A stretch of DNA of 64,000 nt from Thermoproteota archaeon (GTDB lineage: Archaea; Thermoproteota; Thermoprotei_A; EX4484-217-1; JAPDJV01), in NCBI GenBank assembly GCA_029258925.1, contig JAPDJV010000010.1, positions 32,126 through 96,125 on the forward strand, given 5' to 3'. Shown here in pieces: positions 4,966-34,597 of the stretch (its first letter is position 1; each line of letters starts with the position of its first letter). The notes below the pieces were generated by a model that worked only from the letters and a program-made list of their open reading frames with translations, did no database searches and had not been told where the DNA came from. A program made the translations under genes and the position numbers.

Positions 4966-7900
4966 TCATGGATATGCCCTCTCTATTTCATCCGGTTCCG
5001 GCATTAAATTATTGTTTGAGTCAACCCAGTGGAATACCACTACACTGCTAGATAAGGTGTCCAGTAGATTCTCATCTATTAGGTAGTGCAAGTATATTGC
5101 CGACGCCCATGTCCCCCTCCACTCGAATCCGTAGAATATTATTATCGTATTGTTGTAGTTGTCACTGAACACTTCTATTACGAACATGTCTTCGTGTTCG
5201 AAGTCCACGGGCTTATTTAGAAACGCTATTATCTCCCCCGACGTAGTATTTATGAAAGCATACTTGTCCTCCATCTCGGCGAATTTAATTAGAGAAGCAT
5301 TGTTGTACTCATAGTATTTGACAAGCCAGTTCGGCAAGGGGCCTCCGAAAGCCATCAATATGTTATTTGAGACAGTAATATTCAGACTCCCTGGATCATG
5401 TTCTCCATCTCCCTCCACTATCATGTCGTCGAAAATGTTTCTCTGCGTGTTGCTGCATAAACCGTAAATTATTCCACCGGCAATAACATCGTATGCGGCG
5501 ACAGGCCTGGTCATCCTATATGGGTTCGCGTAAACGAACATAGCACGCTCCGGTAAAGCATTAAACACATTGTCTAGAACATCACATATGGTAGTTAGCT
5601 TCTCTCGTAATGAATATACTAGGCTCTCCTCCTGCCTGTAGGGGTTGTCCACTACTACTCCACAATACCATGCGATCTCCACGTATATCTCAGATGGATC
5701 ATAGTATGGTATGTCTAGAATCTGTGGATCCACGGTGAACTCCATGAACTCTGAGTCAACCCACGCGTTCTCGTAGGACTCGTTGTCCACGTAAAGCCAG
5801 GTATCATATACATAGTTGTAAACCCAGACCCCCTCAGGCTCATAGTATGCTACAATATCCGTAAGCCCGTCTTCATCCAGGTCGTAGTGTATTATTAGCT
5901 CGAAGTACACGTCGCACGTACTATTAGAGAACCTGGATGGATCAATGATTCCGGCTAGCTCCACTCCATGGTAAATCTTGTCTCCCCATAGAGAGTAGAA
6001 CGCTGTGGAATTAAATTCCTGGTATTGATCATCTCCTATAGCATCTTCCTCGTCGTAGAGTATGAGTGTGCTGGTGGGAGGCCAGTCGCTTGGATCTCCA
6101 TCCACACTCAGCGTGTACGGTGATTCCGTAAGCCAACCGTAATCCGTGGGCGGATAATCGTAGGAGGCTGATGCAACTTTGTCGAAGAATATTCCTACAG
6201 TGTTGGAACTTCTTACTCCTATCTCGTCTAGGGGGAGAATTATTTTAAGGTACTCCAGTATTCTGGAACCATTTATTGAGATCCCGTAGTCCACGTACTC
6301 GCTTTCCAAGTCACTCACGTAAATCCATGAATTCAAATAATTGTTGAACCTATATAGCTCGCCGTAAGAGTAGGAGCCAAATAATTCAACGTATACTTCC
6401 ACGTCTCTGCCTAAAGCATCCCCACTCTTAGGATCAGAGTCTACATCGATCTTAACATCCACTTCTCTGCCATAAACTATGCTCCCGCTGGAATCATAGG
6501 ATAATAGGTTTGGTCTTGGCTCATACCATTCGAACTTCAATGTTATATGGGATTCATTATTGTATACGTGGAGATAGTATAGGTCTCTCCACCCGCCGAA
6601 ATCGTATCCGTCGAAAACGTGCACCGCACCCTTACCAGCAACTATTGGCGCTCCCCTAACACTTATAGTACTACAGTATGGAATAATATCTACCCCGGAA
6701 ACAGTGATGTTCAACGTGTCGACTTCAATGGAGGAGGAAATATTTACTATGGCTACACCACTCTCAGAAGTATGTGCAACTGCGAATACTTCGCCATCAG
6801 CTGAGAAAACGGTTACATTAGCGTTTACAACGGGGCTTCCATCATCCATGTAGGTGACAGTCACTGTGAACGATGTTTGACTAGCATTTATGGTTGCTGG
6901 ATGAACCACGCTTATTTCCCTAGGATTCCTCCATATTGGTGTCAGAGGGTCTCCGAAGAAAATGTATTCAAGGAAGTCCTTTACGTCAGCGTAGTCGGAT
7001 ACATCCATGTACTGCATTGCAAAAGCTATTCTAGAAGCATAGAATGCTTCTCCAACACTTACAACATTATTATCGAACAACTTCTCTCCGAAAAGATACA
7101 TCAATCCCTGGTTTCCACCATACCCGCGTTGCCAGCCGATGACATAGTAGCTTATCCTTGAAGATGCAATGACAGCTATGGAACCCTCTCCTTCTTGAAT
7201 CAAATACTCGGCATATGCCTCATTATCGAGGTCGTCGAATTTCCCTAGAAGACATGCACTAACGTAAGTTATGGGAGTCTTATTCCCAGCACTTAAGCTT
7301 ATGTATATGTTAGCAAACTCCACCCAATCCATCTCATCGCTCTCAGGCACGTCATCGCCATCGTCTTCAGCCCAAATCTTCCTGTAGTGTCCTGTGGGAG
7401 AGCCGTGGCCAGCCTCGAAAACAGCATAGTAGCCATTGCTGAACTGGTACTCGAAGTTACCGTAGGTCAATGAGGCTTCATGTGGATACTCTGAGGGATC
7501 GAGACCCTCATCCTCGTACAATCTGAAATAATTATAGCCTATTGGATCCAAGAAGTCTTCTCTAATACATTCCAGAGGGTAGGCGTCATCTGTTTTAAGT
7601 AGTCCCCTATCATCCTCGTTCTCGTAGTTCGATATGGCTCCAGCAAGCAGTACTTTGTGAAGCCACTCGTCAACCTCAACGTTTCTCTCGTAGTCCACTA
7701 TTTTGTCAACAACGATGCTTGTGGAACCAGTGAGATACGTTGGTACCCTACCAACTAGAACCTCGGGCAGAGTGTCAGGTAATGTCTCAATGAACCCGTC
7801 TGGATATCCATCGCCATCAGTATCCGGGCATTCCAGGAGCTTCCCGTCTCCATCTGGATCCCAGTCCCCGTCTAGTAGTGCATAGTACATGTCAGTAGCC

Positions 7901-9018
7901 TTGTAATTCCTGTTTAATCCTCCCCCAGCCTCCATGTCGCTAGAGCTATCTTCCATGTAGAAGTATGCTGGGGGTACAACATCGTAGTCTCCCCCTAGAA
8001 CAACGTACTCGGTATTCCAGTTCTCGTAGGCATACTTTATGAAGTTCCTTATCCTATCCTGGATCGTTGCTCCACTGAAATAGCTGTTTATCCAGTCAAC
8101 AGTGATCACTCTAGACCTGTATCCTAGGGCAGTCCTCCAGGAAGCTAGTTCCCGAAATATTTCTTCTAAGTCCCCACTAGTTATGATGATGTATGGATAA
8201 CTGTTTCCACAACTTTCTTCAACCGCGTTGTGATACCTGTTCTCATTGTAGTATATTTTAGTGGCTCCCGTGTTTAACGCTATTGTCTTCAAGAACTTGT
8301 TGACAACGCTTGTTTCAGGCCTACGAGCTTCGCTTTCAACGACGTCTCCACTAATAATGTTCAACGTAATTCTCATGACGTGGACTATTTTAAGCGTCAA
8401 ATTGCCTTCGTAGTATTGGATTGGATAAACTGATAATGGGATTAGCTTGTATGGTCCAAGCCATTGCTCCGAGAATGATTCACATAAGTTTCCGGGCCAC
8501 ACAATGTTTTCATAGACATCCTGCAACATGTTAGCTCCTATATTTTTCTCTAAGTAGGCTGGTTGTAGTGGTAGGGCTTTCTCAAGAGGCTCCTCTATTT
8601 CTAAACGTTTCACGATAATAGGTTGCAGGCTAATGCTCACATTCACAGTATTAGCTGGTACGAGAACATAAAACCTCTTATATGGTACGATAGGGTTCCC
8701 AGGAACATAATAGTAGTCTAGGCCTGGAACATCTATGTAAGTATACTTTTTTCCCTCATCACATTTTAACTCGTATGAGAGTATGTTAATGTATATTCTA
8801 ATCTCATTTGAGTAGGATTCGACTCTAACATAGTTCTCAGGTGAATTCTCATCAAGTATTTTAACATCTACTACACAGCTCTTCAATCTCCGACCCAATT
8901 CTCCGGGCACTTCAATTGCTTGAGGCACTGGCAGTATTATTGTGGTAATAATCATTGTGAAGAGGAATATGGGCCAGAGTTTTTTAATATAATAGGGGAA
9001 GACTATATGATCTATCAT
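4966..9018 (-). CDS. secreted giant cysteine peptidase, C25 (gingipain/clostripain-like) family, with Ca-binding Asp-rich repeats and Ig-like C-terminal domains
   Basis: 1350 aa with an N-terminal hydrophobic signal/anchor (LWPIFLFTMIITTIILPVPQA). The catalytic His motif is AVFEAGHGSPTGHY, followed by the Cys motif ITYVSACLLGKFDD. Other blocks are YVVLGGDYDVVPPAYFY and thrombospondin-type-3-like DGDWDPDGDGK..DTDGDGYPDG. Confidence 0.6.
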   Translation of the reverse strand: MIDHIVFPYYIKKLWPIFLFTMIITTIILPVPQAIEVPGELGRRLKSCVVDVKILDENSPENYVRVESYSNEIRIYINILSYELKCDEGKKYTYIDVPGLDYYYVPGNPIVPYKRFYVLVPANTVNVSISLQPIIVKRLEIEEPLEKALPLQPAYLEKNIGANMLQDVYENIVWPGNLCESFSEQWLGPYKLIPLSVYPIQYYEGNLTLKIVHVMRITLNIISGDVVESEARRPETSVVNKFLKTIALNTGATKIYYNENRYHNAVEESCGNSYPYIIITSGDLEEIFRELASWRTALGYRSRVITVDWINSYFSGATIQDRIRNFIKYAYENWNTEYVVLGGDYDVVPPAYFYMEDSSSDMEAGGGLNRNYKATDMYYALLDGDWDPDGDGKLLECPDTDGDGYPDGFIETLPDTLPEVLVGRVPTYLTGSTSIVVDKIVDYERNVEVDEWLHKVLLAGAISNYENEDDRGLLKTDDAYPLECIREDFLDPIGYNYFRLYEDEGLDPSEYPHEASLTYGNFEYQFSNGYYAVFEAGHGSPTGHYRKIWAEDDGDDVPESDEMDWVEFANIYISLSAGNKTPITYVSACLLGKFDDLDNEAYAEYLIQEGEGSIAVIASSRISYYVIGWQRGYGGNQGLMYLFGEKLFDNNVVSVGEAFYASRIAFAMQYMDVSDYADVKDFLEYIFFGDPLTPIWRNPREISVVHPATINASQTSFTVTVTYMDDGSPVVNANVTVFSADGEVFAVAHTSESGVAIVNISSSIEVDTLNITVSGVDIIPYCSTISVRGAPIVAGKGAVHVFDGYDFGGWRDLYYLHVYNNESHITLKFEWYEPRPNLLSYDSSGSIVYGREVDVKIDVDSDPKSGDALGRDVEVYVELFGSYSYGELYRFNNYLNSWIYVSDLESEYVDYGISINGSRILEYLKIILPLDEIGVRSSNTVGIFFDKVASASYDYPPTDYGWLTESPYTLSVDGDPSDWPPTSTLILYDEEDAIGDDQYQEFNSTAFYSLWGDKIYHGVELAGIIDPSRFSNSTCDVYFELIIHYDLDEDGLTDIVAYYEPEGVWVYNYVYDTWLYVDNESYENAWVDSEFMEFTVDPQILDIPYYDPSEIYVEIAWYCGVVVDNPYRQEESLVYSLREKLTTICDVLDNVFNALPERAMFVYANPYRMTRPVAAYDVIAGGIIYGLCSNTQRNIFDDMIVEGDGEHDPGSLNITVSNNILMAFGGPLPNWLVKYYEYNNASLIKFAEMEDKYAFINTTSGEIIAFLNKPVDFEHEDMFVIEVFSDNYNNTIIIFYGFEWRGTWASAIYLHYLIDENLLDTLSSSVVVFHWVDSNNNLMPEPDEIERAYP

Positions 9019-10012: not shown

Positions 10013-12001
10013 TCAGTTTAAGAATACTTTGTGAACTACTTCAAGACTCGAATCGTTAACTACTTTAATCATATTGTTTGAAATTGTGTATATATAGTCT
10101 CCAATATAAAGTGTCCTAATAGCTCCTTGATGACTGATGAATCCTCTCAGCGCCAGAGCCTCTATAGAAACATTAACAACATAGACTCCATCAATTTCTC
10201 CATAAACTGGAATACACATGTAGTTTTTACCAATATTTATCGTGAAAGCCTTGTGGTCTGTTAGTATTGGAGTCCAAGACATTCGATCTCCTATAGTTAT
10301 ATTTGAGACCAGTATTGGATTTTCAATATCAGATATATTGAATAATGCTATTTTTAGGCCATGCATTAAACCTTTCTCATCAACTTCCACTCCGACACCT
10401 ATCAAATAATCTTCTAAATACGGGTGAAGGTATTCGGAGTAGCCTAGTATTTTGAGTTCTCCAAGCACTCTAGGATTCTCCGGGTCTGATAAGTCTATTG
10501 CAAATAATGGATCTATTCTCCTAAATGTTACCAGGAACATTTTATCGCCCATAAACCTTGCAGCATATATTCTCTCTCCTAAAGCGAGGTTTTCGATGCA
10601 TCCAACTATTTGCAAGTCCATGTTTAATACGTAAACGTTGTTAATGGATTCGGATCCTCCGCTTAGATTTTTACTAACCGTTGTAGCAACCCTCAAGTAT
10701 CCATTGTACTCATCTATTGAGAATTGATCTAATATGTGTCCTGGAATAGTCCCTATAGCACTTGCCTTAATGCTTGTCCCATTTAAAGCGAACCTGTATA
10801 TAGTGGTTTCATCCACATATAGTTCATAGAACTCATTGTACACTTTATTCAACACTCTATTCTTCTCCTCTGAACTAAGAGAATTAATGTAATCTTCAAC
10901 AGCCTTCTCTACTTCAACTAGTCCTTCCACATCATATTCCCGCGAATTCATTAAATCATTAACCTTGTTTCTCAAAGCATCTGGCGCATTTTCTAACAAT
11001 GCTTCGACAACTCTCTCCATTAACCTATATGGATCAACCCGTTTTCTGGAAAACAAGTACAAGTTTTCATGTGACATGTAAATGTTGGATGAACACCCTG
11101 TGAGGAAAACATCTTTCCCATAGCTACCGTTCTCCACGTTCAACGATATTATTGTCGTGAAGACGTATGTGAAATCTCTTGTAAAGTATTTCACATCAGA
11201 AGCCTCTACTTCAACCCCATTGATTTCAGGCAGGATAACTGTGCCATTCTCAGCTATAGATGGCTGAGTTATTATAGTGTAACAATACTTTCCGCTAAGC
11301 CTGGACGTAGCATAGCTTCCTGTGACAGTTATATTATTCATTAGTATCGGATTGAATATGTTGGTGATGTTGTATAATAGTATGCTCGTCTCCGGGAACT
11401 CTTTAATCACTTGATAAACATTTGTTTTCCCCTGGACATTCCTCAGCAAGCTCACTGCGAAAATGCTTGGAGAAGCAACTATCACAACAAGTCTATCCCC
11501 CTCAACAAATATTCCCTCAACCATGCCGGTGAAATTAAGCTTGTGGACGATGCTAACCTCGCTTGGGGGATAAGCCTTCACAATTACAACACTGCTCCCC
11601 CTAGCAACATATATGTATTCTCCATCAGTCTTAACAATGTCAGCTTCATCAACCCCCTCAACCTGGACATTTGTAACCGAGTGCTCAGGTTTTTCAGTGG
11701 ATAAAACAGCTGTACTCTCCTCTAGAACGGGTAGCATAGCACCATACTTAAGAGCATGAAATGTTTCCGGGATGAACCACGGCATTATCCTAGACAATAT
11801 CATCGAGGAGGTAACGTAATCCTCCACTTCCCTTCTAGAAGAAAAACTGTTCACTATAGGGGTCGCCACTGGAGTCCAATGTCCGGGAGGAGTTTGTTCA
11901 GCATTTGGTTCAACATAAAGTGTTTTCTCGAGCAGTAAACATGATGCCTCCATTAATAATAATATTAATAGTATTAAGCCCGCAGATTTCCATTTACCCA
12001 T
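10013..12001 (-). CDS. secreted beta-propeller domain protein
   Basis: Signal peptide MGKWKSAGLILLILLLMEASC; the ORF track starts 19 codons upstream at 12058. The block NVQVEGVDEADIVKTDGEYIYV resembles the archaeal/bacterial Beta_propel family, and the body is beta-rich and repetitive. Confidence 0.55.
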   Translation of the reverse strand: MGKWKSAGLILLILLLMEASCLLLEKTLYVEPNAEQTPPGHWTPVATPIVNSFSSRREVEDYVTSSMILSRIMPWFIPETFHALKYGAMLPVLEESTAVLSTEKPEHSVTNVQVEGVDEADIVKTDGEYIYVARGSSVVIVKAYPPSEVSIVHKLNFTGMVEGIFVEGDRLVVIVASPSIFAVSLLRNVQGKTNVYQVIKEFPETSILLYNITNIFNPILMNNITVTGSYATSRLSGKYCYTIITQPSIAENGTVILPEINGVEVEASDVKYFTRDFTYVFTTIISLNVENGSYGKDVFLTGCSSNIYMSHENLYLFSRKRVDPYRLMERVVEALLENAPDALRNKVNDLMNSREYDVEGLVEVEKAVEDYINSLSSEEKNRVLNKVYNEFYELYVDETTIYRFALNGTSIKASAIGTIPGHILDQFSIDEYNGYLRVATTVSKNLSGGSESINNVYVLNMDLQIVGCIENLALGERIYAARFMGDKMFLVTFRRIDPLFAIDLSDPENPRVLGELKILGYSEYLHPYLEDYLIGVGVEVDEKGLMHGLKIALFNISDIENPILVSNITIGDRMSWTPILTDHKAFTINIGKNYMCIPVYGEIDGVYVVNVSIEALALRGFISHQGAIRTLYIGDYIYTISNNMIKVVNDSSLEVVHKVFLN

Positions 12002-12278
12002 TTTTCCACCATCATGCAATATGCTGAATCTAACATAAAATACTAATGGATAGAACAATAGTTCTAAATATTAGAATCATAATCTTCGTAAAAACTATTT
12101 GACATGTTTAAATTATAGCATTAAATCTCCTACTTCCAACAAATGCCTATTATAATAGATGAGTTAAGCAGTGGATGATGATTTTACGTAGAATCTAGGA
12201 GAAACCTTGGGATAACTAGTGATCTACATTATGTAGAAACCACTTATTTTAATGGAACTAGCTATATGTATTTGACCA

Positions 12279-28003: not shown

Positions 28004-30826
28004 TTGATTGCGCTAGACGGCCTACACCCCCATGTTAGGAGGCTTTGGGTTGCTAGAGGATTTAAGGAGCCCACACCCCCGCAGGCTGAAGCTTTCCCCC
28101 GTATTCTTGCAGGAGAGAATGTTTTAATCGTTGCCCCGACTGGTACTGGGAAGACTGAAGCAGCTTTCCTCCCAATACTCTCAATGCTTTTAGGGGAGGG
28201 TAGCAATGGGATTAAAGCAGTATATGTAACACCTTTGAGAACACTTAACAGGGATATCTTGGATAGGCTTAAATGGTGGTCTCTGAAACTAGATTTACGG
28301 ATAGCTGTTAGACACGGTGACACGTCTACTTCTGAGAGGAGGATTCAAGCCCTCAAGCCGCCAGACATATTGATAACTACTCCTGAAACATTTCAGCTAC
28401 TCCTAGTTGGAGGAGTATTGAGGCAACACTTATCCGCATTGAAGTGGATTATCGTCGACGAAGTCCATGAGATTGCTGACAGTAAGAGAGGAGTCCAGCT
28501 TACAATATTGTTGGAGAAGGCTAGGAGGATTGCTGGCCGAGAATTCCAGCTAATTGGATTATCTGCTACGGTAGGTAATCCAGGTGAAGTAGCGGAGTTC
28601 ATTGTTGGATCTGGGAGGAAGTGCAGCGTAATCTATACTCCCGTGTCCAAAATGATTGAAGTAGACGTCATCTGGCCCGATGAAATATTTGAGGACAGTG
28701 CTTTAGCTGAGAAATTGATGGTTACTAGGGAAGTAGCCTCACGTCTCCGCTACATTAAGAGTGCATTGAGTAAATACAGGAGTATTCTGGTATTTTCGAA
28801 TACTAGACCCACGGCGGAGATGATTGGTAGCAGACTTAAGTTATGGGACATTGACTTGCCAGTTCACGTTCACCATGGAAGCCTGTCCCAGGTTGAGAGA
28901 ATTAGGATTGAGGAAATGCTTAGGGAGGGCAGTATTAAGGGTGTTATCTGCACTTCCTCGATGGAGCTGGGCATAGACATAGGCTACGTAGACTTCGTAA
29001 TCCAATACAATTCCCCCAGAGAGGTTAAGAGACTTATCCAGAGAGTTGGGCGGTCAGGCCATGGGATTGGGAGAGTGAGTAGGGGCGTTGTTCTAGTTGG
29101 AGACAGCGATAATGCTCTGGAAGCAATAGTTCTAGTAAACCTATTGAAGCGAGAACAAGTTGAACCATCTAAGTATCCCCCTAAACCCCTAGACGTATTG
29201 GCTCATGAAATAATAGGCTTCGCCGTCTCCGGAAAATACACTTTAGATGAAGTATACGAGTTGGTGAAGAAAGCAGTTCCATACAGGGATCTAGATAGGG
29301 ATGAATTCAATGTTCTCGTAGAATTCTTATCTAGTATAGGACTACTAAGCGTGATCGGAGGCTACGTGAGGCCTGCAGGTAAGAGGACGTACGATTACTT
29401 CTTCAAAACGCTGTCAATGATACCGGAAGTCAGACAGTATTATGTTGTCGACAGGGAGGAAAAAATTGTCGTAGGTCTCCTAGACGACTTCTTCGTTTCA
29501 GAATACTGTGAGCCCGGGGCAAGATTCATCATGGCTGGGAGACCCTGGGAAGTACTATCTCTAACAGAGAAAACAGTTTACGTTAAGCCCGTGGAAGACT
29601 ATAGGAGTGCCATACCTAGTTGGATAGGAGAGGAAATACCTGTATCATATGATGTGGCGCAGGAAGTGGGCAGGATTAGGGGTCTAGTAGAGGAGATGGC
29701 TAAGAGCGGTTTAAGCCTTAGTGAAGTAGTTGAAACATTGTCTGCGAAGTACGGTGCAAACGAGGATACTTTAAGGAAAGCTATTTTAAACGTATACTAT
29801 ATGGTCTCGAAGGGAACCCCTGTTCCAACAGATAGGCGAATAATAGTGGAAGATGCTGGAGACAACATCATAATTGTACACGCACACTTCGGTAACAAAG
29901 TCAATAGAGTTCTCGGAAAATATCTCTCCCACACTCTAGCAGGAATCCTCGGCATACCAGTATACGTAGCGGAGAAGCCGTATAGAATTATTTTGAGAGC
30001 CGAAGGCTTGTGCTCGGAGGATGTTGAATACGTTCTAAGAGACCTGACTGTCGAAGAGTTTAAGAAGAAAGTTTATAGAGCAGTTGAGGAGAGCAGGGGG
30101 TTCAGGTGGAGACTTCAACAAGTAGCTAGGAGAATGGGGGTCATTGAACCGGAGAAAACTCTTAGCAGGGCTGACCTTGAAAATCTCGTTCTATACCTTA
30201 AAGATACGCCCCCATATTTGGAAGCGTTAAAGGAAGTACTATACAAGGATATGGATATGGAGAGAGCTTTAAGTGTTGTAGAAATGCTGGAGAGAGAGGA
30301 GGTCGAAGTTAAGAGTATTAGAGGACCCACAAAGCTTACCTTAGAGTACTTCAAGTTCCTAGGAGGATACATGGAGCCAAGGCTTCCGGAGAAGAGGGAT
30401 ATAATCTCTCATATAATATTTAAAACAAGGATTCTATCCAACATAATTTCTCTCGGCTGCTTAGACTGCGGTAATGTGTGGAGTATCCAAGTATCCAAGT
30501 TGCTTGGGGGAATAGAGTGCCCCGTGTGCTTCTCTAAGAACATCGCGTTCGATGTTATTGGAGAAGAAGAGTTGAGTTCGCGGATTAGGAGGTGTAGAAG
30601 CCGTAAGAGGGGTAAGGGATGCAGAATTCTATGGGACAGCGTTAGGATGTTAAGGGAGCACGGGGTTGCCGCGGTATTGGCTAGAGCAGCTGGGTTCAGC
30701 TTCAGAGAAATACGTAGGATAGCACTACATTATTCAGGGGATGTCGACTCTTTTTTGAAGAAGCTTTGGGTTGAGAAGAAGAGGAAGATGCAGGAAGCCA
30801 TATTGTCCCGGTTGAGTGAAGCATAG
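28004..30826 (+). CDS. Lhr-type large superfamily-2 helicase (DEAD/DEAH box, COG1201) with C-terminal zinc ribbon
   Basis: Walker A APTGTGKTEAA, DEVH box IIVDEVHE, motif VI QRVGRSGH, and C-terminal CLDCGNVWS...CPVCF. Its length (940 aa) fits archaeal Lhr-like helicases. Confidence 0.8.
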   Translation: MIALDGLHPHVRRLWVARGFKEPTPPQAEAFPRILAGENVLIVAPTGTGKTEAAFLPILSMLLGEGSNGIKAVYVTPLRTLNRDILDRLKWWSLKLDLRIAVRHGDTSTSERRIQALKPPDILITTPETFQLLLVGGVLRQHLSALKWIIVDEVHEIADSKRGVQLTILLEKARRIAGREFQLIGLSATVGNPGEVAEFIVGSGRKCSVIYTPVSKMIEVDVIWPDEIFEDSALAEKLMVTREVASRLRYIKSALSKYRSILVFSNTRPTAEMIGSRLKLWDIDLPVHVHHGSLSQVERIRIEEMLREGSIKGVICTSSMELGIDIGYVDFVIQYNSPREVKRLIQRVGRSGHGIGRVSRGVVLVGDSDNALEAIVLVNLLKREQVEPSKYPPKPLDVLAHEIIGFAVSGKYTLDEVYELVKKAVPYRDLDRDEFNVLVEFLSSIGLLSVIGGYVRPAGKRTYDYFFKTLSMIPEVRQYYVVDREEKIVVGLLDDFFVSEYCEPGARFIMAGRPWEVLSLTEKTVYVKPVEDYRSAIPSWIGEEIPVSYDVAQEVGRIRGLVEEMAKSGLSLSEVVETLSAKYGANEDTLRKAILNVYYMVSKGTPVPTDRRIIVEDAGDNIIIVHAHFGNKVNRVLGKYLSHTLAGILGIPVYVAEKPYRIILRAEGLCSEDVEYVLRDLTVEEFKKKVYRAVEESRGFRWRLQQVARRMGVIEPEKTLSRADLENLVLYLKDTPPYLEALKEVLYKDMDMERALSVVEMLEREEVEVKSIRGPTKLTLEYFKFLGGYMEPRLPEKRDIISHIIFKTRILSNIISLGCLDCGNVWSIQVSKLLGGIECPVCFSKNIAFDVIGEEELSSRIRRCRSRKRGKGCRILWDSVRMLREHGVAAVLARAAGFSFREIRRIALHYSGDVDSFLKKLWVEKKRKMQEAILSRLSEA

Positions 30827-30830
30827 TATT

Positions 30831-31382
30831 CTAGGTTTTCAGTCCAACTAGTTTCTCGAAGTCCACTTCTATCTTAGACCTCCACCCAATAACGATATTC
30901 TCTCCCTCCTCCTCCAAGTACCCCATTCTCAACAATTTCTCTAAAACATAGGTAACTCTACGCTTATCGAATTTAGAGTGAAGAATATCTAGCAACTGCT
31001 TTCTATGGACTCTGCCGTTAGAGGAGGTCAGGTATAGTAGTGATGTTGCAAGTATTGCAACATCGTCTATGCGCCAACCCGAAGTCCTCAACTCCTGTAG
31101 TGTTGGAGGCTCCTTCAATACTGCTACGAAGACAGCTTTCTTAAGAGCTCTTTTCTCCCCGTCTAAACTTAAGGTTACACCCCCCTCTCCAACAGCCTTA
31201 ACAGTTAAGCCTAGTGGTTCGAGAACGTTGTTGAGTGCCTTAACTACTTCCAAGAAGTCTTCCCCCAATAGCCTGTAGAGCTCCCACCCCTTAACCCCCG
31301 GCTTACTTCTGCTCTTAAACAATATTGCCCTAGCAGCTCTCCTTATCTTAGATGAGGGTATTCTAGCTGGAATAATTATCAC
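30831..31382 (-). CDS. ScpB-like tandem winged-helix (KITE-like) protein
   Basis: Two wHTH-like halves (AARAILFKSRSKPGVKGWELYRLLGEDFLEVVKALNNVLEPLGLTVKAV and QELRTSGWRIDDVAILATSLLYL...LEKLLRMGYLEEEGE), as in ScpB. It overlaps the upstream ScpA-like gene by 20 nt. Confidence 0.55.
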   Translation of the reverse strand: MIIIPARIPSSKIRRAARAILFKSRSKPGVKGWELYRLLGEDFLEVVKALNNVLEPLGLTVKAVGEGGVTLSLDGEKRALKKAVFVAVLKEPPTLQELRTSGWRIDDVAILATSLLYLTSSNGRVHRKQLLDILHSKFDKRRVTYVLEKLLRMGYLEEEGENIVIGWRSKIEVDFEKLVGLKT

Positions 31383-32160
31383 CTCTCAAAGCTATTACTA
31401 TAGACTGGTATTCTCCTACTGCCGGTGCTTCAAGAATATAGTACTCCTCTTTTAGTGGATCATGTATTATACTTAGTTCGCCCATGGTTGCCAAGTAGGA
31501 GATAACGTATGCTCTAATGAATGTTTCAAGCATGCTCTCGCCCTTCACGAAGTCGAAGTATTCTAGTATTCCTCCACCACTAAGCCTCCTCTTAACCTCC
31601 TGCCTAATATTGTCTAGAATCTCCTGTAAGTCTAGTTCTGATAGGATACCTAGATTCTCCAAGTCTCCTACTCCAACAGTCTTCAATTCCCCTCGCTCAA
31701 GGAAATCTGGTTTGAAGCTTTTCCTGGTTGACAGATAGTTTAAAGCTCTCATGATCTCCGTGAAGGTTATTTGCTCGAGTTCAACTATGGGGTGCCAAGA
31801 TAGCGCCAAGTCTCTTGCAAGTTCTCGCTCGGACAGGGAGGATATTTTAAGCAGGGCTATGAAGGGTCCTAGGACGAGCATTGAAGACCTATTTTTAACC
31901 CATTCTTCTTGATCCCTGACCACCTCAACTATGTGGCTTAGGATTTCGGAGTCTAAAACTAGGTGTTCGTCTCTTAGTGCTGGTAAGAGTTTTGATAATT
32001 CGTCCAATATTTTCTTCACGTCTACTTTAAATGGATCAGTTGTACTCTTAACTGTTTCAACAAGTTCATCTAATAGGCTCCTCAATTTAGCTGTAATATT
32101 CTTACTCAACATTTTCCCCCAATATTGAAGGAGTTGAAGCAGCCTTAACTTTCTGAACAA
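31363..32160 (-). CDS. ScpA-like kleisin
   Basis: 265 aa with a helical N-terminus and a C-terminal winged-helix block (ETFIRAYVISYLATMGELSIIHDP) typical of the ScpA C-terminus. It overlaps the SMC-like gene by 59 nt. Confidence 0.55.
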   Translation of the reverse strand: MFRKLRLLQLLQYWGKMLSKNITAKLRSLLDELVETVKSTTDPFKVDVKKILDELSKLLPALRDEHLVLDSEILSHIVEVVRDQEEWVKNRSSMLVLGPFIALLKISSLSERELARDLALSWHPIVELEQITFTEIMRALNYLSTRKSFKPDFLERGELKTVGVGDLENLGILSELDLQEILDNIRQEVKRRLSGGGILEYFDFVKGESMLETFIRAYVISYLATMGELSIIHDPLKEEYYILEAPAVGEYQSIVIALRGDNYSS

Positions 32161-33832
32161 CTATGATATTAGCGTCATCCGGTATCCTGCTTAACGGCCC
32201 CGGAGTTATCATTATGTACTGGACGCCCCTGTTTTTTCGGGCCAACTCGATTATTATGTCTAGTATTGCAGTCCTATTTTGGGGATCCATGTGGACGTCG
32301 AACTCGTCTACGGCTCTCATAGGAGACTTTATGTAGTTTTGGAGTGCTAGTAGGAAGCACATTACGGCTGTAGCTCTCTCCCCACCGCTCTGAGTATACG
32401 GGTCGAGAAGGGAAGGCTCCATCCCCCTAAAGCCTACTGTGAGCTCTAATCCGGCTTTCTCGAAGTCGTCTAAATCAACCAATTTTACGTCTCCAACTGC
32501 GTTGAACCTGTCTAAGAATATTCTATAGGATTCTGCTACTCTAGATATTGTGGAAACAAGCTTGCTTCTCCAAACCTCAATCCTCTTCCCCAATTCGTCT
32601 AGAGCTCTCCTCCTATTCTCGGCGGCCTCCTCAGCCCTCTTCTTCAGTTCCTCGAAGACAGAACTATACTTACTATATGCTTCAACAACGTTTCCAGGTA
32701 TATCTCCTATAGATGCTATTGAAAGCTCTATTCTCCTAATTTCCTCCTCTACTTCAATAATACTCCTATCGCTCTCAACTCTCTCACCGTATTCTAAAGC
32801 CTTTCTCGTTAACTCTCTAAGTCTCCTCTTCAACTTCCTCTCTTCTAAAATAAGGCTCTTCAATTCCCTTTGTAATAGTGAAATTCTGAATTTAGCTAGT
32901 TTTTCCTCTGATAATGTTTCAGCGTAGTTAAGCCAGTTATTTCTTAGAAGCTTAATGTAAGTCGCTACATCGCTTACTCCGGAAACTATTTTCTCCTCCA
33001 CTCCAGCAATATCCTCTCTGAGCTTACTTAAGACGTTGTCGAATTCCTCAAGCTTCCTCTCCTCCCCTAAAATAGTTTCCCTAAGTTCTCGAACCTTCTC
33101 CTCCAACTCTACAAGCTCTTTCTCCCTATCCCTAACATTAATCCAAGCCTTCTCTCTTTCCAATTCCTGGAGTTTCGACGTCAAGCTCTTCTTCTTCAGA
33201 AATCTGCTGTACATTTCGCTCCAATACTGTAGTGATTCCTCGGCCTTCGACAGCATTTCCCTTATTTTAGCCTCTTCTCCCCTGGAATGCTCTAGTTTCC
33301 GGAGAGCTGCAATTATCCTCCTCCTATACTTCCCCAAACCTATAGCGTCTTCAACTACCTGGAGTTTTTCCTGAGGTGAAAGGAAAACGAACTCCTCCAC
33401 CATGTTCTGGTGCATTATTATGAGCATGTTGTCCGGGTTCAAACCTATTCTAGAAAGATACCTGTAAACCTCTAGTTTAGGAACTCTCCTACCATTAACC
33501 TCATGCCAGTACTGGCCATCACTTCTAATGTACCTGGTGAAGAACACTTCGTCGCTCCTAAACCATGGAAGAGGTCTCCCATCATCCTCCACCCTATTAT
33601 CTAGTACAACTGTCACCCTAGCAATACTCCTCCCCCTCCTTATCAAATCGCTGAGTCTTCTCCCCCTCTCAGTGTATGTTTGCCCTAGTGCAACTGATAT
33701 TCCTAGAAGTATACTTGACTTCCCCGAACCATTTGGACCGGTTATAATGTTTAGCCCTGGTTTAAAGGGGATTCTAGCATACCTGTACGACATGAAGTCC
33801 TCTAATATTACTTCTCTCAACATTGCAGGCAT
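32102..33832 (-). CDS. compact SMC-family ATPase (576 aa) with short coiled coil and no recognisable hinge/hook
   Basis: N-terminal head with Walker A (ITGPNGSGKSS) and a Q-loop region (IMHQNMVEEF...EDAIGLGKYRRR). About 300 aa of heptad-rich coiled coil, with no CxxC hook. C-terminal head with the signature TQSGGERA, Walker B/D-loop RAVDEFDVHMD and FIVIT-like QYIMIT. Confidence 0.7.
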   Translation of the reverse strand: MPAMLREVILEDFMSYRYARIPFKPGLNIITGPNGSGKSSILLGISVALGQTYTERGRRLSDLIRRGRSIARVTVVLDNRVEDDGRPLPWFRSDEVFFTRYIRSDGQYWHEVNGRRVPKLEVYRYLSRIGLNPDNMLIIMHQNMVEEFVFLSPQEKLQVVEDAIGLGKYRRRIIAALRKLEHSRGEEAKIREMLSKAEESLQYWSEMYSRFLKKKSLTSKLQELEREKAWINVRDREKELVELEEKVRELRETILGEERKLEEFDNVLSKLREDIAGVEEKIVSGVSDVATYIKLLRNNWLNYAETLSEEKLAKFRISLLQRELKSLILEERKLKRRLRELTRKALEYGERVESDRSIIEVEEEIRRIELSIASIGDIPGNVVEAYSKYSSVFEELKKRAEEAAENRRRALDELGKRIEVWRSKLVSTISRVAESYRIFLDRFNAVGDVKLVDLDDFEKAGLELTVGFRGMEPSLLDPYTQSGGERATAVMCFLLALQNYIKSPMRAVDEFDVHMDPQNRTAILDIIIELARKNRGVQYIMITPGPLSRIPDDANIIVVQKVKAASTPSILGENVE

Positions 33833-33862
33833 TTCAGTTAACCTACCTTAGTATACATAAAT

Positions 33863-34597
33863 ATGTTACCCGGTATTACTATAACAGTGTACCCGTCTGG
33901 GTGGACTAAAATGGTTTCGGCCTTTAAGGTCTTCGAAGTGGTTGAAGACGTTGATCTAGCTACGATAGCCTTTAAGCTGAAAGATTATAGGCTGATGAAA
34001 ATAGAGGATGTTAATGGAAGAGAGGTCGAGGTGGGAGTGGAGATACGCGATCTGAAGTTGAATAAGGGCTGTTTAACGGGTGTAGTGGAGGAAACTATGA
34101 TAGCCTCCCTAAACTATAAGGGCGAGATTCTTAGGACACCGATATCTCTTAGAACACTCTTCGAATTCCACCCGTATAGAGAAAGATTAATGCTGATAGT
34201 GGCAGCCAAGAAAAATAGGGCGAACAGGATAGCATCACTCTTCTCATCAATATTGTCAGCCCGGAAAACAGGGGTCTTAGAGGCCCTTATCCCCCATGAA
34301 AATCTTAAAGCATTCTACGAGGAGAAGAAGAACTCTGCGAAAGTAGTTTTCTTCGATAACATTAGGATTCCGGGAGTTAGAAAACTATCACTATACGGAG
34401 ACCAGTTGGCAAACACCGCACTGTACAACGAGTACCTTAAGCTGGGTAAAGTCTGGTACGTTGTATTCGAGGCGGAAGAGGGGATGGTTGTTGGAGTTAC
34501 AAGGAACTGCGTCATCACGTTCTTCTCGAAAATAGACTACGACGACGCCTTAAAGTTCATCGAGGAGAAGATACTGCCCTTAACCGTGAAACCTTAA
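33863..34597 (+). CDS. hypothetical protein (244 aa), divergent from the SMC-like operon
   Basis: Intact soluble ORF with no motif. Confidence 0.4.
   Translation: MLPGITITVYPSGWTKMVSAFKVFEVVEDVDLATIAFKLKDYRLMKIEDVNGREVEVGVEIRDLKLNKGCLTGVVEETMIASLNYKGEILRTPISLRTLFEFHPYRERLMLIVAAKKNRANRIASLFSSILSARKTGVLEALIPHENLKAFYEEKKNSAKVVFFDNIRIPGVRKLSLYGDQLANTALYNEYLKLGKVWYVVFEAEEGMVVGVTRNCVITFFSKIDYDDALKFIEEKILPLTVKP

Follow-up and report, generated by a model that had tools for sequence, protein, structure and literature searches.

We analysed a window of 64,000 nucleotides (nt) from a Thermoproteota archaeon (contig JAPDJV010000010.1, which is 104.6 kb long, positions 32,126 to 96,125 of the forward strand), which carries an operon of three genes on its minus strand. 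The first gene (33832-32102) encodes an SMC5/6-related archaeal SMC ATPase of 576 amino acids (aa), recognised from its open reading frame (ORF), from Pfam and Protein Data Bank (PDB) matches, and from an AlphaFold2 model with Foldseek. The second (32112-31363) encodes an Nse4-like kleisin of 248-249 aa, and the third (31382-30831) an Nse1/Nse3-like KITE protein of 183 aa, which starts with GTG and has two tandem winged-helix domains and no RING finger. We are fairly confident that together they code for an SMC5/6-related complex of archaea, of a kind that has already been published.

The three overlapping minus-strand ORFs lie in the ORF list exactly where the first-pass annotation of this DNA had placed them. 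The genes do overlap as stated there, but the first overlap is probably shorter than was given. The longest kleisin ORF, of 265 aa, begins with TTG at 32160; the start is more likely the ATG at 32112 or the TTG at 32109. The database gene model of the kleisin has 248 aa, and the stop codon of the SMC gene (TAA) is at 32104-32102 in the junction sequence. With the database model and either of these starts, the SMC and kleisin genes overlap by 8-11 nt and not by 59 nt. The KITE gene, with its GTG at 31382, overlaps the end of the kleisin gene (stop at 31365-31363) by 20 nt. Junctions in the relatives were overlapping or abutting in 44/64 (SMC/kleisin) and 67/78 (kleisin/KITE) cases, counted from longest-ORF starts, by which overlaps tend to be overstated. 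All three families are kept at 35-70% identity in several archaeal classes, and so we regard them as real genes.

The SMC ATPase and its closest relatives

The 576-aa protein is a true SMC-family ATPase, and not Rad50 or RecN. Its translation shows Walker A GPNGSGKS (residues 32-39), Q142, EDAIGLGKYRRR (161-172), SGGERA (482-487), AVDEFD (507-512) and QYIMITP (538-544), and its catalytic residues were invariant in an alignment of 50 homologues. The motifs from which the first-pass annotation had called the gene SMC-family are thus all present, and Pfam SMC_N (105 bits), PDB and Foldseek searches agree with the call.

Searches beyond the motifs lead to SMC5 and SMC6. When the single sequence was compared with PDB by phmmer, human and yeast SMC5/SMC6 ranked first, and the C-terminal QYIMITP was aligned with QYFFITP of SMC5. 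A profile of 50 family members gave a top ten in PDB made up only of SMC6 or SMC5 (194-216 bits), followed by the best archaeal Smc (168 bits), SMC2 (145), SMC3 (129) and Rad50 (53). We also ran an exhaustive phmmer search against 1.84 billion representative proteins. The archaeal family came out at more than 300 bits, and after it came a second tier of proteins of ~900-1200 aa at ~125-137 bits. Twenty clusters were looked up; of those in this tier, several carried no name at all, and every cluster named as an SMC type was eukaryotic SMC5 or SMC6, from Synchytrium, Saitoella, Schizosaccharomyces japonicus, lamprey, bird, fish and fly. By score ranking, eukaryotic SMC5 and SMC6 therefore appear to be nearer relatives of the head of this SMC than canonical SMC1-4 or prokaryotic Smc are.

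Among NCBIfam models the best was SMC_prok_A with 173 bits (TIGR02169 gave 173 bits with a cut-off of 729, and TIGR02168 gave 139 bits with a cut-off of 567). The others were ASRP with 63 bits (cut-off 300), Rad50 with ~59 (700-1000) and RecN with 28 (408), and no curated prokaryotic family in NCBIfam had its cut-off reached by the 576-aa protein. A placement in Rad50 or RecN, which the first-pass annotation had considered as the outcome contrary to its own, did not come about; the cut-offs were missed and true SMCs ranked first.

Kleisin and KITE partners and the published archaeal complexes

As single sequences, the kleisin and the KITE had no match in Pfam, NCBIfam or PDB sequences, so that the partners could be resolved only by family profiles and a structure model. 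The kleisin has an N-terminal helical domain and a C-terminal winged helix. A profile of 18 kleisin homologues had yeast Nse4 as its sole PDB match (E 0.002), at the C-terminal winged helix, and 8/18 of these homologues matched Pfam Nse4_C, the best of them at 3.3e-6. With a profile of 79 homologues from the fetched loci, Nse4 was found at 1.5e-5 and EID3 at 4e-4. Human EID3 is a paralogue of Nse4. The same profile touched the ScpA N-domain at 0.04 and the ScpA C-terminal winged helix at ~0.2 (to 0.25). The second gene is a kleisin, closest to Nse4 as judged from these profiles.

The model of the KITE, with a predicted local distance difference test score (pLDDT) of 85, shows two tandem winged helices without RING finger. 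It was superposed over its full length on Nse1/Nse3, but over only 107 residues on ScpB. The third gene is a KITE, and its predicted fold is closest to Nse1/Nse3. The first-pass annotation had described the partners as ScpA-like and ScpB-like, and had allowed that they might not belong to the kleisin and KITE families at all. Its C-terminal winged helix in the kleisin and two winged-helix halves in the KITE were correct, and Nse4 profile matches and the Nse1/Nse3 superposition place both proteins in these families; the ScpA/ScpB assignment, however, has to be replaced by Nse4 by profile and Nse1/Nse3 by fold, and no significant match with ScpA-family kleisin or ScpB-family KITE was obtained. 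An SMC with its own kleisin and tandem-winged-helix KITE in one overlapping operon, as proposed there, is what we find.

The KITE family was scanned in one genome per GTDB species, and at least 560 genomes had a KITE. Locus counts are based on the 80 best KITE loci, which were fetched, and are uncorrected for shared ancestry. These loci, mostly of Thermoproteota classes, belong to Thermofilaceae/Thermofilales, other Thermoproteota, Bathyarchaeia, Nitrososphaeria, Methanomethylicia and Culexmicrobium, with a few from Methanosarcinales, Hadarchaeota and Halobacteria; Asgard members are absent from the 80. Among the genomes listed, the best relatives of the window proteins are in metagenome-assembled genomes (MAGs) of Thermofilaceae. 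A hidden Markov model (HMM) search of all ORFs showed an SMC of ~550-700 aa, the kleisin and the KITE in the same order and orientation in ~65/80 loci. About 12 loci have the kleisin-KITE pair without adjacent SMC, some of them on contigs that are simply too short; in L020, L030, L048 and L064, other genes are located upstream of the pair. In the window itself, the HMM search of all ORFs gave one SMC match in total.

There were several side observations on these loci. The pair without adjacent short SMC is seen in L018, L020, L030, L039, L047, L048, L062, L064 and L066-L069, which include MAGs of Methanosarcinales and Halobacteria. An SMC is present in L079, inverted and 1.4 kb upstream. In L068, labelled as a Desulfobacteria bacterium MAG, an SMC is 4 kb upstream; the label could come from a binning error or from horizontal transfer. 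Near the kleisin-KITE pair of L064 there is a 796-aa ORF (L064:4488-6878, minus strand), in whose translation one segment looks, by eye, like a possible intein or homing-endonuclease-like insert.

Such complexes have been described before. Yoshinaga and Inagaki (2021, PMC8665677) defined the "SMC5/6-related archaeal SMC (aSMC)" with 80 sequences, 66 of them from TACK archaea, covering Crenarchaeota, Verstraetearchaeota, Thaumarchaeota, Bathyarchaeota and Korarchaeota. Van Hooff, Raas, Tromer and Eme (bioRxiv 10.1101/2024.01.07.573240) reported operons in TACK and Asgard archaea that combine an SMC5/6-related SMC with a kleisin related to Nse4 and a kite related to Nse1/3, the kleisin and kite being adjacent in 31/31 cases examined. 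In their Supplementary Table 3, the Thermofilales genome B15-G2 was scored Nse4_related=1, Nse1_Nse3_related=1 and neighbours=1. For Caldivirga maquilingensis the table has two SMC5/6-related SMCs, with neither an Nse4- nor an Nse1/3-related partner entered. Our locus L018, from isolate B15_G2, carries the kleisin-KITE pair and appears to be the same genome, matched by isolate name; the example gene clusters of that table share no contig accession with the fetched loci. The statement in the first-pass annotation that such a triad has no described archaeal counterpart is corrected by these two studies. The window triad agrees with the published complex in its three subunit families, its gene order, its TACK-centred range, which is that of the SMC5/6-related aSMC, and its affinity to SMC5/6, Nse4 and Nse1/3, and we found nothing that contradicts its membership.

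Eukaryotic SMC5/6 (Smc5-Smc6-Nse1-Nse3-Nse4, with Nse2 and Nse5/6) contains the closest solved relatives of all three proteins. Shared with it are the KITE-type rather than HAWK-type composition, the DNA-clamping module of head, kleisin and KITE, and the repair-associated context. There are also differences. The window has one SMC gene, for which a homodimer is expected, whereas eukaryotic SMC5/6 has a Smc5 and Smc6 heterodimer joined by hinges; one KITE without RING stands against Nse1, with its RING finger, plus Nse3; the window SMC has ~576 aa, no hinge and arms about one third as long, compared with ~1100 aa; and neither Nse2 nor Nse5/6 was recognised among the window neighbours. With Smc-ScpAB the triad shares the encoding of SMC, kleisin and KITE together and a superposable head-neck-joint fold (5xei), but canonical Smc has ~1150-1200 aa with a hinge, and the window heads are of SMC5/6 type.

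Short arm and apex variants

The AlphaFold2 monomer model of the SMC (pLDDT 88) consists of the N-terminal head (residues 1-166), a coiled-coil helix (167-284), a hairpin turn of four residues (285-288), a return helix (289-441) with joint-like breaks at 349-357 and 376-381, and the C-terminal head (445-570). The arm in this model is an antiparallel coiled coil of ~118 residues, or ~17 nm. No hinge is present in the model and Pfam SMC_hinge gave no match; neither the translation nor the model has a CxxC zinc hook. Foldseek with the model returned nearly only heads of SMC, cohesin, condensin and Smc5/6, and its top match was 5xei, the Pyrococcus yayanosii crystal construct "Smc head + coiled coil + joint". 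A half-length SMC lacking both hinge and zinc hook had been described in the first-pass annotation, and the 576 aa, the missing CxxC and the model agree with it; the arm length and hinge that it had wished to see predicted came out, with AlphaFold2 and Foldseek, as an arm of ~118 residues that ends in a hairpin without hinge.

The short form is not particular to this genome. About 230 of 267 family sequences have 550-700 aa and no central CxxC, and the gain in length (to ~690 aa) comes from insertions at the apex, at positions 276-292. Conservation is lowest in this segment, where column identity is 0.31-0.45 compared with 0.8-0.9 in the heads, and directly after the hairpin there is a conserved L..W..Y patch. 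Because more than 200 family sequences have the short architecture, it is not a local deletion, and the possibility of an internally deleted ordinary smc, which the first-pass annotation had kept in mind, was not borne out.

A smaller number of relatives have a different apex. Bathyarchaeota proteins of 1016-1047 aa (P0213, P0219, P0231 and their cluster members), with 38-42% identity, carry a CxxC (CDKC or CERC) exactly halfway along the sequence, suggestive of an apical zinc hook of Rad50 type; a midpoint CxxC was seen in 23 family sequences of 795-1047 aa, partial ones included. The 982-aa relative P0241 (33% identity) has a central Gly/Pro-rich, non-helical-looking region at ~400-560. The 835-aa P0278, from the Asgard archaeon "Candidatus Freyarchaeum deiterrae", matches Pfam SMC_hinge at 341-452 and is more distant from the window SMC (160 bits, 28% identity). 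The relatives with hook or hinge, whose identity with the window SMC is 28-42% (lowest for the Asgard form), thus have long arms and an apex dimerisation device, both of which are missing from the window protein and from most TACK members. Since a hinge or hinge-like region is kept in P0278 and P0241, the bare hairpin of the TACK proteins looks like a derived loss. The searchable text and supplements of PMC8665677, bioRxiv 10.1101/2024.01.07.573240 and PMC9389158 contain no comment on the hinge or arm length of the SMC5/6-related clade.

Such a family is useful in several respects. With three apex types (hinge, zinc-hook-like CxxC and bare hairpin) it forms a comparative series, and a natural SMC that ends just past the joint is a minimal system in which clamping and ATPase control by kleisin and KITE can be separated from ring closure and arm length. 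As an archaeal sister of eukaryotic SMC5/6, it also bears on how eukaryotes acquired their SMC complexes.

Conserved neighbours, possible role and alternatives

A helicase gene (28004-30826, plus strand) ends 4 nt from the KITE stop and is convergent with it. Its 940-aa product has DEAD, Helicase_C, WH_Lhr and DEAD_assoc domains in Pfam and a C-terminal CxxC...CxxC. According to PMC8301817, aLhr1 is defined by an extra Cys-rich C-terminus, and with these domains and the C-terminal cysteines the helicase is therefore of aLhr1 type. Of the 63 loci with at least 1.5 kb downstream, 24 had an Lhr homologue in tail-to-tail orientation to the KITE gene (-100 to +200 nt) and 35 had one within 5.5 kb of it, and this adjacency spans several archaeal classes. 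The convergent Lhr, which the first-pass annotation had pointed out, is thus a conserved association. The survey in PMC8301817 reported no conserved neighbour for aLhr1.

On the other side of the operon, a gene for an uncharacterised conserved protein, here called U, is located on the plus strand (33863-34597). Its longest ORF has 244 aa, or ~228 aa when counted from the conserved start MVSAFK at 33911. The intergenic region between the ATG of the SMC gene and the conserved U start (33833-33910, 78 nt, read from the sequence) contains the A/T-rich, TATA-like stretch TATACATAAATA and is presumed to be a shared promoter region of the two divergent genes. U homologues were found in 26 loci and were divergent from the SMC gene in 18/49 loci; examples are L010:6747-7514 (minus), L006:2490-3170 (minus) and L001:6888-7628 (plus). 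In L001 and L003, U is beside the start of the Lhr gene and divergent from it. The U alignment has 20 invariant positions, and profile and member scans gave no match for the family in Pfam or PDB. We regard U as a candidate fourth component. Neither the Lhr linkage nor this divergent 228-aa gene is described in the searchable text and supplements of PMC8665677 and bioRxiv 10.1101/2024.01.07.573240.

Other repair genes are near the triad in some relatives. In L012 (11375-17879) the triad is followed by rad50 (786 aa), a Mre11-like phosphoesterase, herA and nurA. Four Bathyarchaeia loci (L026:1042-4367, L029:1-2916, L055:3246-6550 and L058:1800-5209) have mre11 and a short rad50 (~700 aa) 2-4 kb upstream of the triad, and in L020 (6419-9096) a HerA-like ATPase is directly upstream of the kleisin-KITE pair, in the usual place of the SMC.

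From eukaryotic and bacterial paradigms, the complex would be built on an SMC homodimer of the SMC5/6 lineage. The kleisin would bridge it asymmetrically: its N-terminal helices would contact one SMC subunit at the neck and its C-terminal winged helix would contact the second subunit at the cap. A KITE dimer would sit on the middle of the kleisin. ATP-engaged heads together with kleisin and KITE might then clamp a DNA segment or junction. As the protein has the head-neck-joint module but neither the outer part of the arm nor the hinge, by which the lumen is closed in other SMCs, we consider that the complex is most likely an ATP-gated DNA clamp or sensor. It may act at replication forks or in break repair together with Lhr, rather than in long-range loop extrusion.

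We would go further only tentatively. The hinge-less arm of ~17 nm could be the usual form of SMC5/6-lineage proteins in TACK archaea, that is, a minimal clamp that never forms a closed ring and is a dedicated partner of aLhr1 and the ~228-aa protein at stalled forks or breaks; it may even be the only SMC complex in, for example, Thermofilales. If this is true, the ancestral activity of the SMC5/6 branch needs neither hinge nor long arms, and the uncharacterised aLhr1 gains a partner. The tail-to-tail pairing with aLhr1 offers a testable link from an SMC5/6-type complex to a repair helicase. Specialists may wish to follow up four features: the arm without hinge, the diversity of the apex, the linkage to aLhr1 and the U gene.

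Several points weigh against this picture. The SMC5/6 placement comes from score ranking and published trees, and the N-terminal half of the head alone scores slightly higher with Pyrococcus Smc than with SMC5. The stoichiometry, the bridging by the kleisin, the dimerisation of the KITE and the clamping of DNA are all proposed by analogy. The hairpin of a monomer model is possibly compatible with apex-apex dimerisation or arm zipping, and a closed ring, even loop extrusion, is possible. The Lhr linkage is absent from most Bathyarchaeia loci, and part of it could be inherited synteny.

The same SMC5/6-related identity could also go with general chromosome organisation, in which the short arms pair at their apices and form a small translocating or loop-extruding ring, again perhaps the only SMC complex in, for example, Thermofilales. 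We think this rather unlikely. Eukaryotic Smc5/6 extrudes loops, as cited in PMC11840125, and the Thermofilales genomes listed in Supplementary Table 3 of van Hooff et al., for which the SMC and kleisin sets were down-sampled, have no recorded ScpB-like kite or canonical SMC. The fully conserved ATPase motifs and the L..W..Y patch after the hairpin would also suit such a ring. However, the protein lacks a hinge, and its apex, which is conserved least and varies most in length, does not resemble a conserved dimerisation domain. The arm reaches ~17 nm compared with ~50 nm in canonical SMC, and the conserved neighbours are repair factors (Lhr, Mre11-Rad50-HerA-NurA) and not segregation genes.

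A condensin paralogue was one of the two readings offered by the first-pass annotation. We find it improbable that the triad derives from canonical archaeal condensin, Smc-ScpAB, either as a paralogue or in truncated form, with divergent ScpA and ScpB. SMC_prok_A is indeed the best NCBIfam model, but its 173 bits are far under the 729-bit cut-off; the N-terminal head half scores well with Pyrococcus Smc and the best Foldseek match is a Pyrococcus Smc fragment, but the family profile favours SMC5/6 by ~45 bits over the best archaeal Smc, and eukaryotic SMC5/6 stood above all canonical SMCs in the exhaustive search. The weak contact of the kleisin profile with ScpA domains (E 0.04-0.25) is exceeded by that with Nse4/EID3 (1e-5 to 4e-4), and the KITE fits Nse1/Nse3 at full length and ScpB by 107 residues only. 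With these affinities to SMC5/6, Nse4 and Nse1/3, and a short form common to more than 200 family sequences, the condensin-paralogue reading is disfavoured.

The other reading offered there was a DNA-sensing defence module of Wadjet/Lamassu type. In such a module, directed against phages or plasmids, the short SMC would be the sensor, and the effector would be encoded elsewhere or supplied by the Lhr-like helicase; we hold this to be very improbable. The LmuB of Lamassu is likewise short-armed, and in PADLOC the SMC matched mad3 (109 bits) and LmuB (88 bits), and the helicase BrxHI (344 bits). These matches, however, are generic homology of SMC heads and the Lhr core, and JetC reached just 27 bits. 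For the kleisin PADLOC gave no match, and the match of the KITE with BrxHI (E 0.007) was not significant. JetA/B/D, LmuA, a nuclease and further BREX genes were all missing from the PADLOC results. The genes around the operon are housekeeping genes, namely carbamoyl-phosphate synthase (CPSase), Tpt1, M20 peptidase and MoCF; GC content is uniform in the window. A defence system carried on islands would be patchily distributed; here, on the contrary, at least 560 species genomes have the KITE, and in the 80 fetched loci the order of the genes is fixed and their flanks are conserved. The affinities of the heads, the kleisin and the KITE are likewise all with SMC5/6.

An ASRP (ClsN/coalescin, Sph) or a Rad50/RecN-type repair ATPase beside unrelated small genes is scarcely credible, for although ~576 aa is near the length of the NCBIfam ASRP model (593) and ASRP and Rad50 gave some score, both scores are far below their cut-offs, ASRPs and Rad50 carry a zinc hook (PMC9389158) that the window SMC does not have, profile and fold searches put true SMCs first and Rad50 far behind, and the two genes downstream, which are homologous to kleisin and KITE, are inherited together with the SMC in ~65/80 loci, so that this membership is refuted.

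Neither a tRNA gene nor another landmark was found across the whole 64 kb of the window. Two further genes of the same window are both on the minus strand: one encodes a 1350-aa peptidase C25 (gingipain-like) protein (4966-9018), and the other a 681-aa beta-propeller protein (10013-12058).

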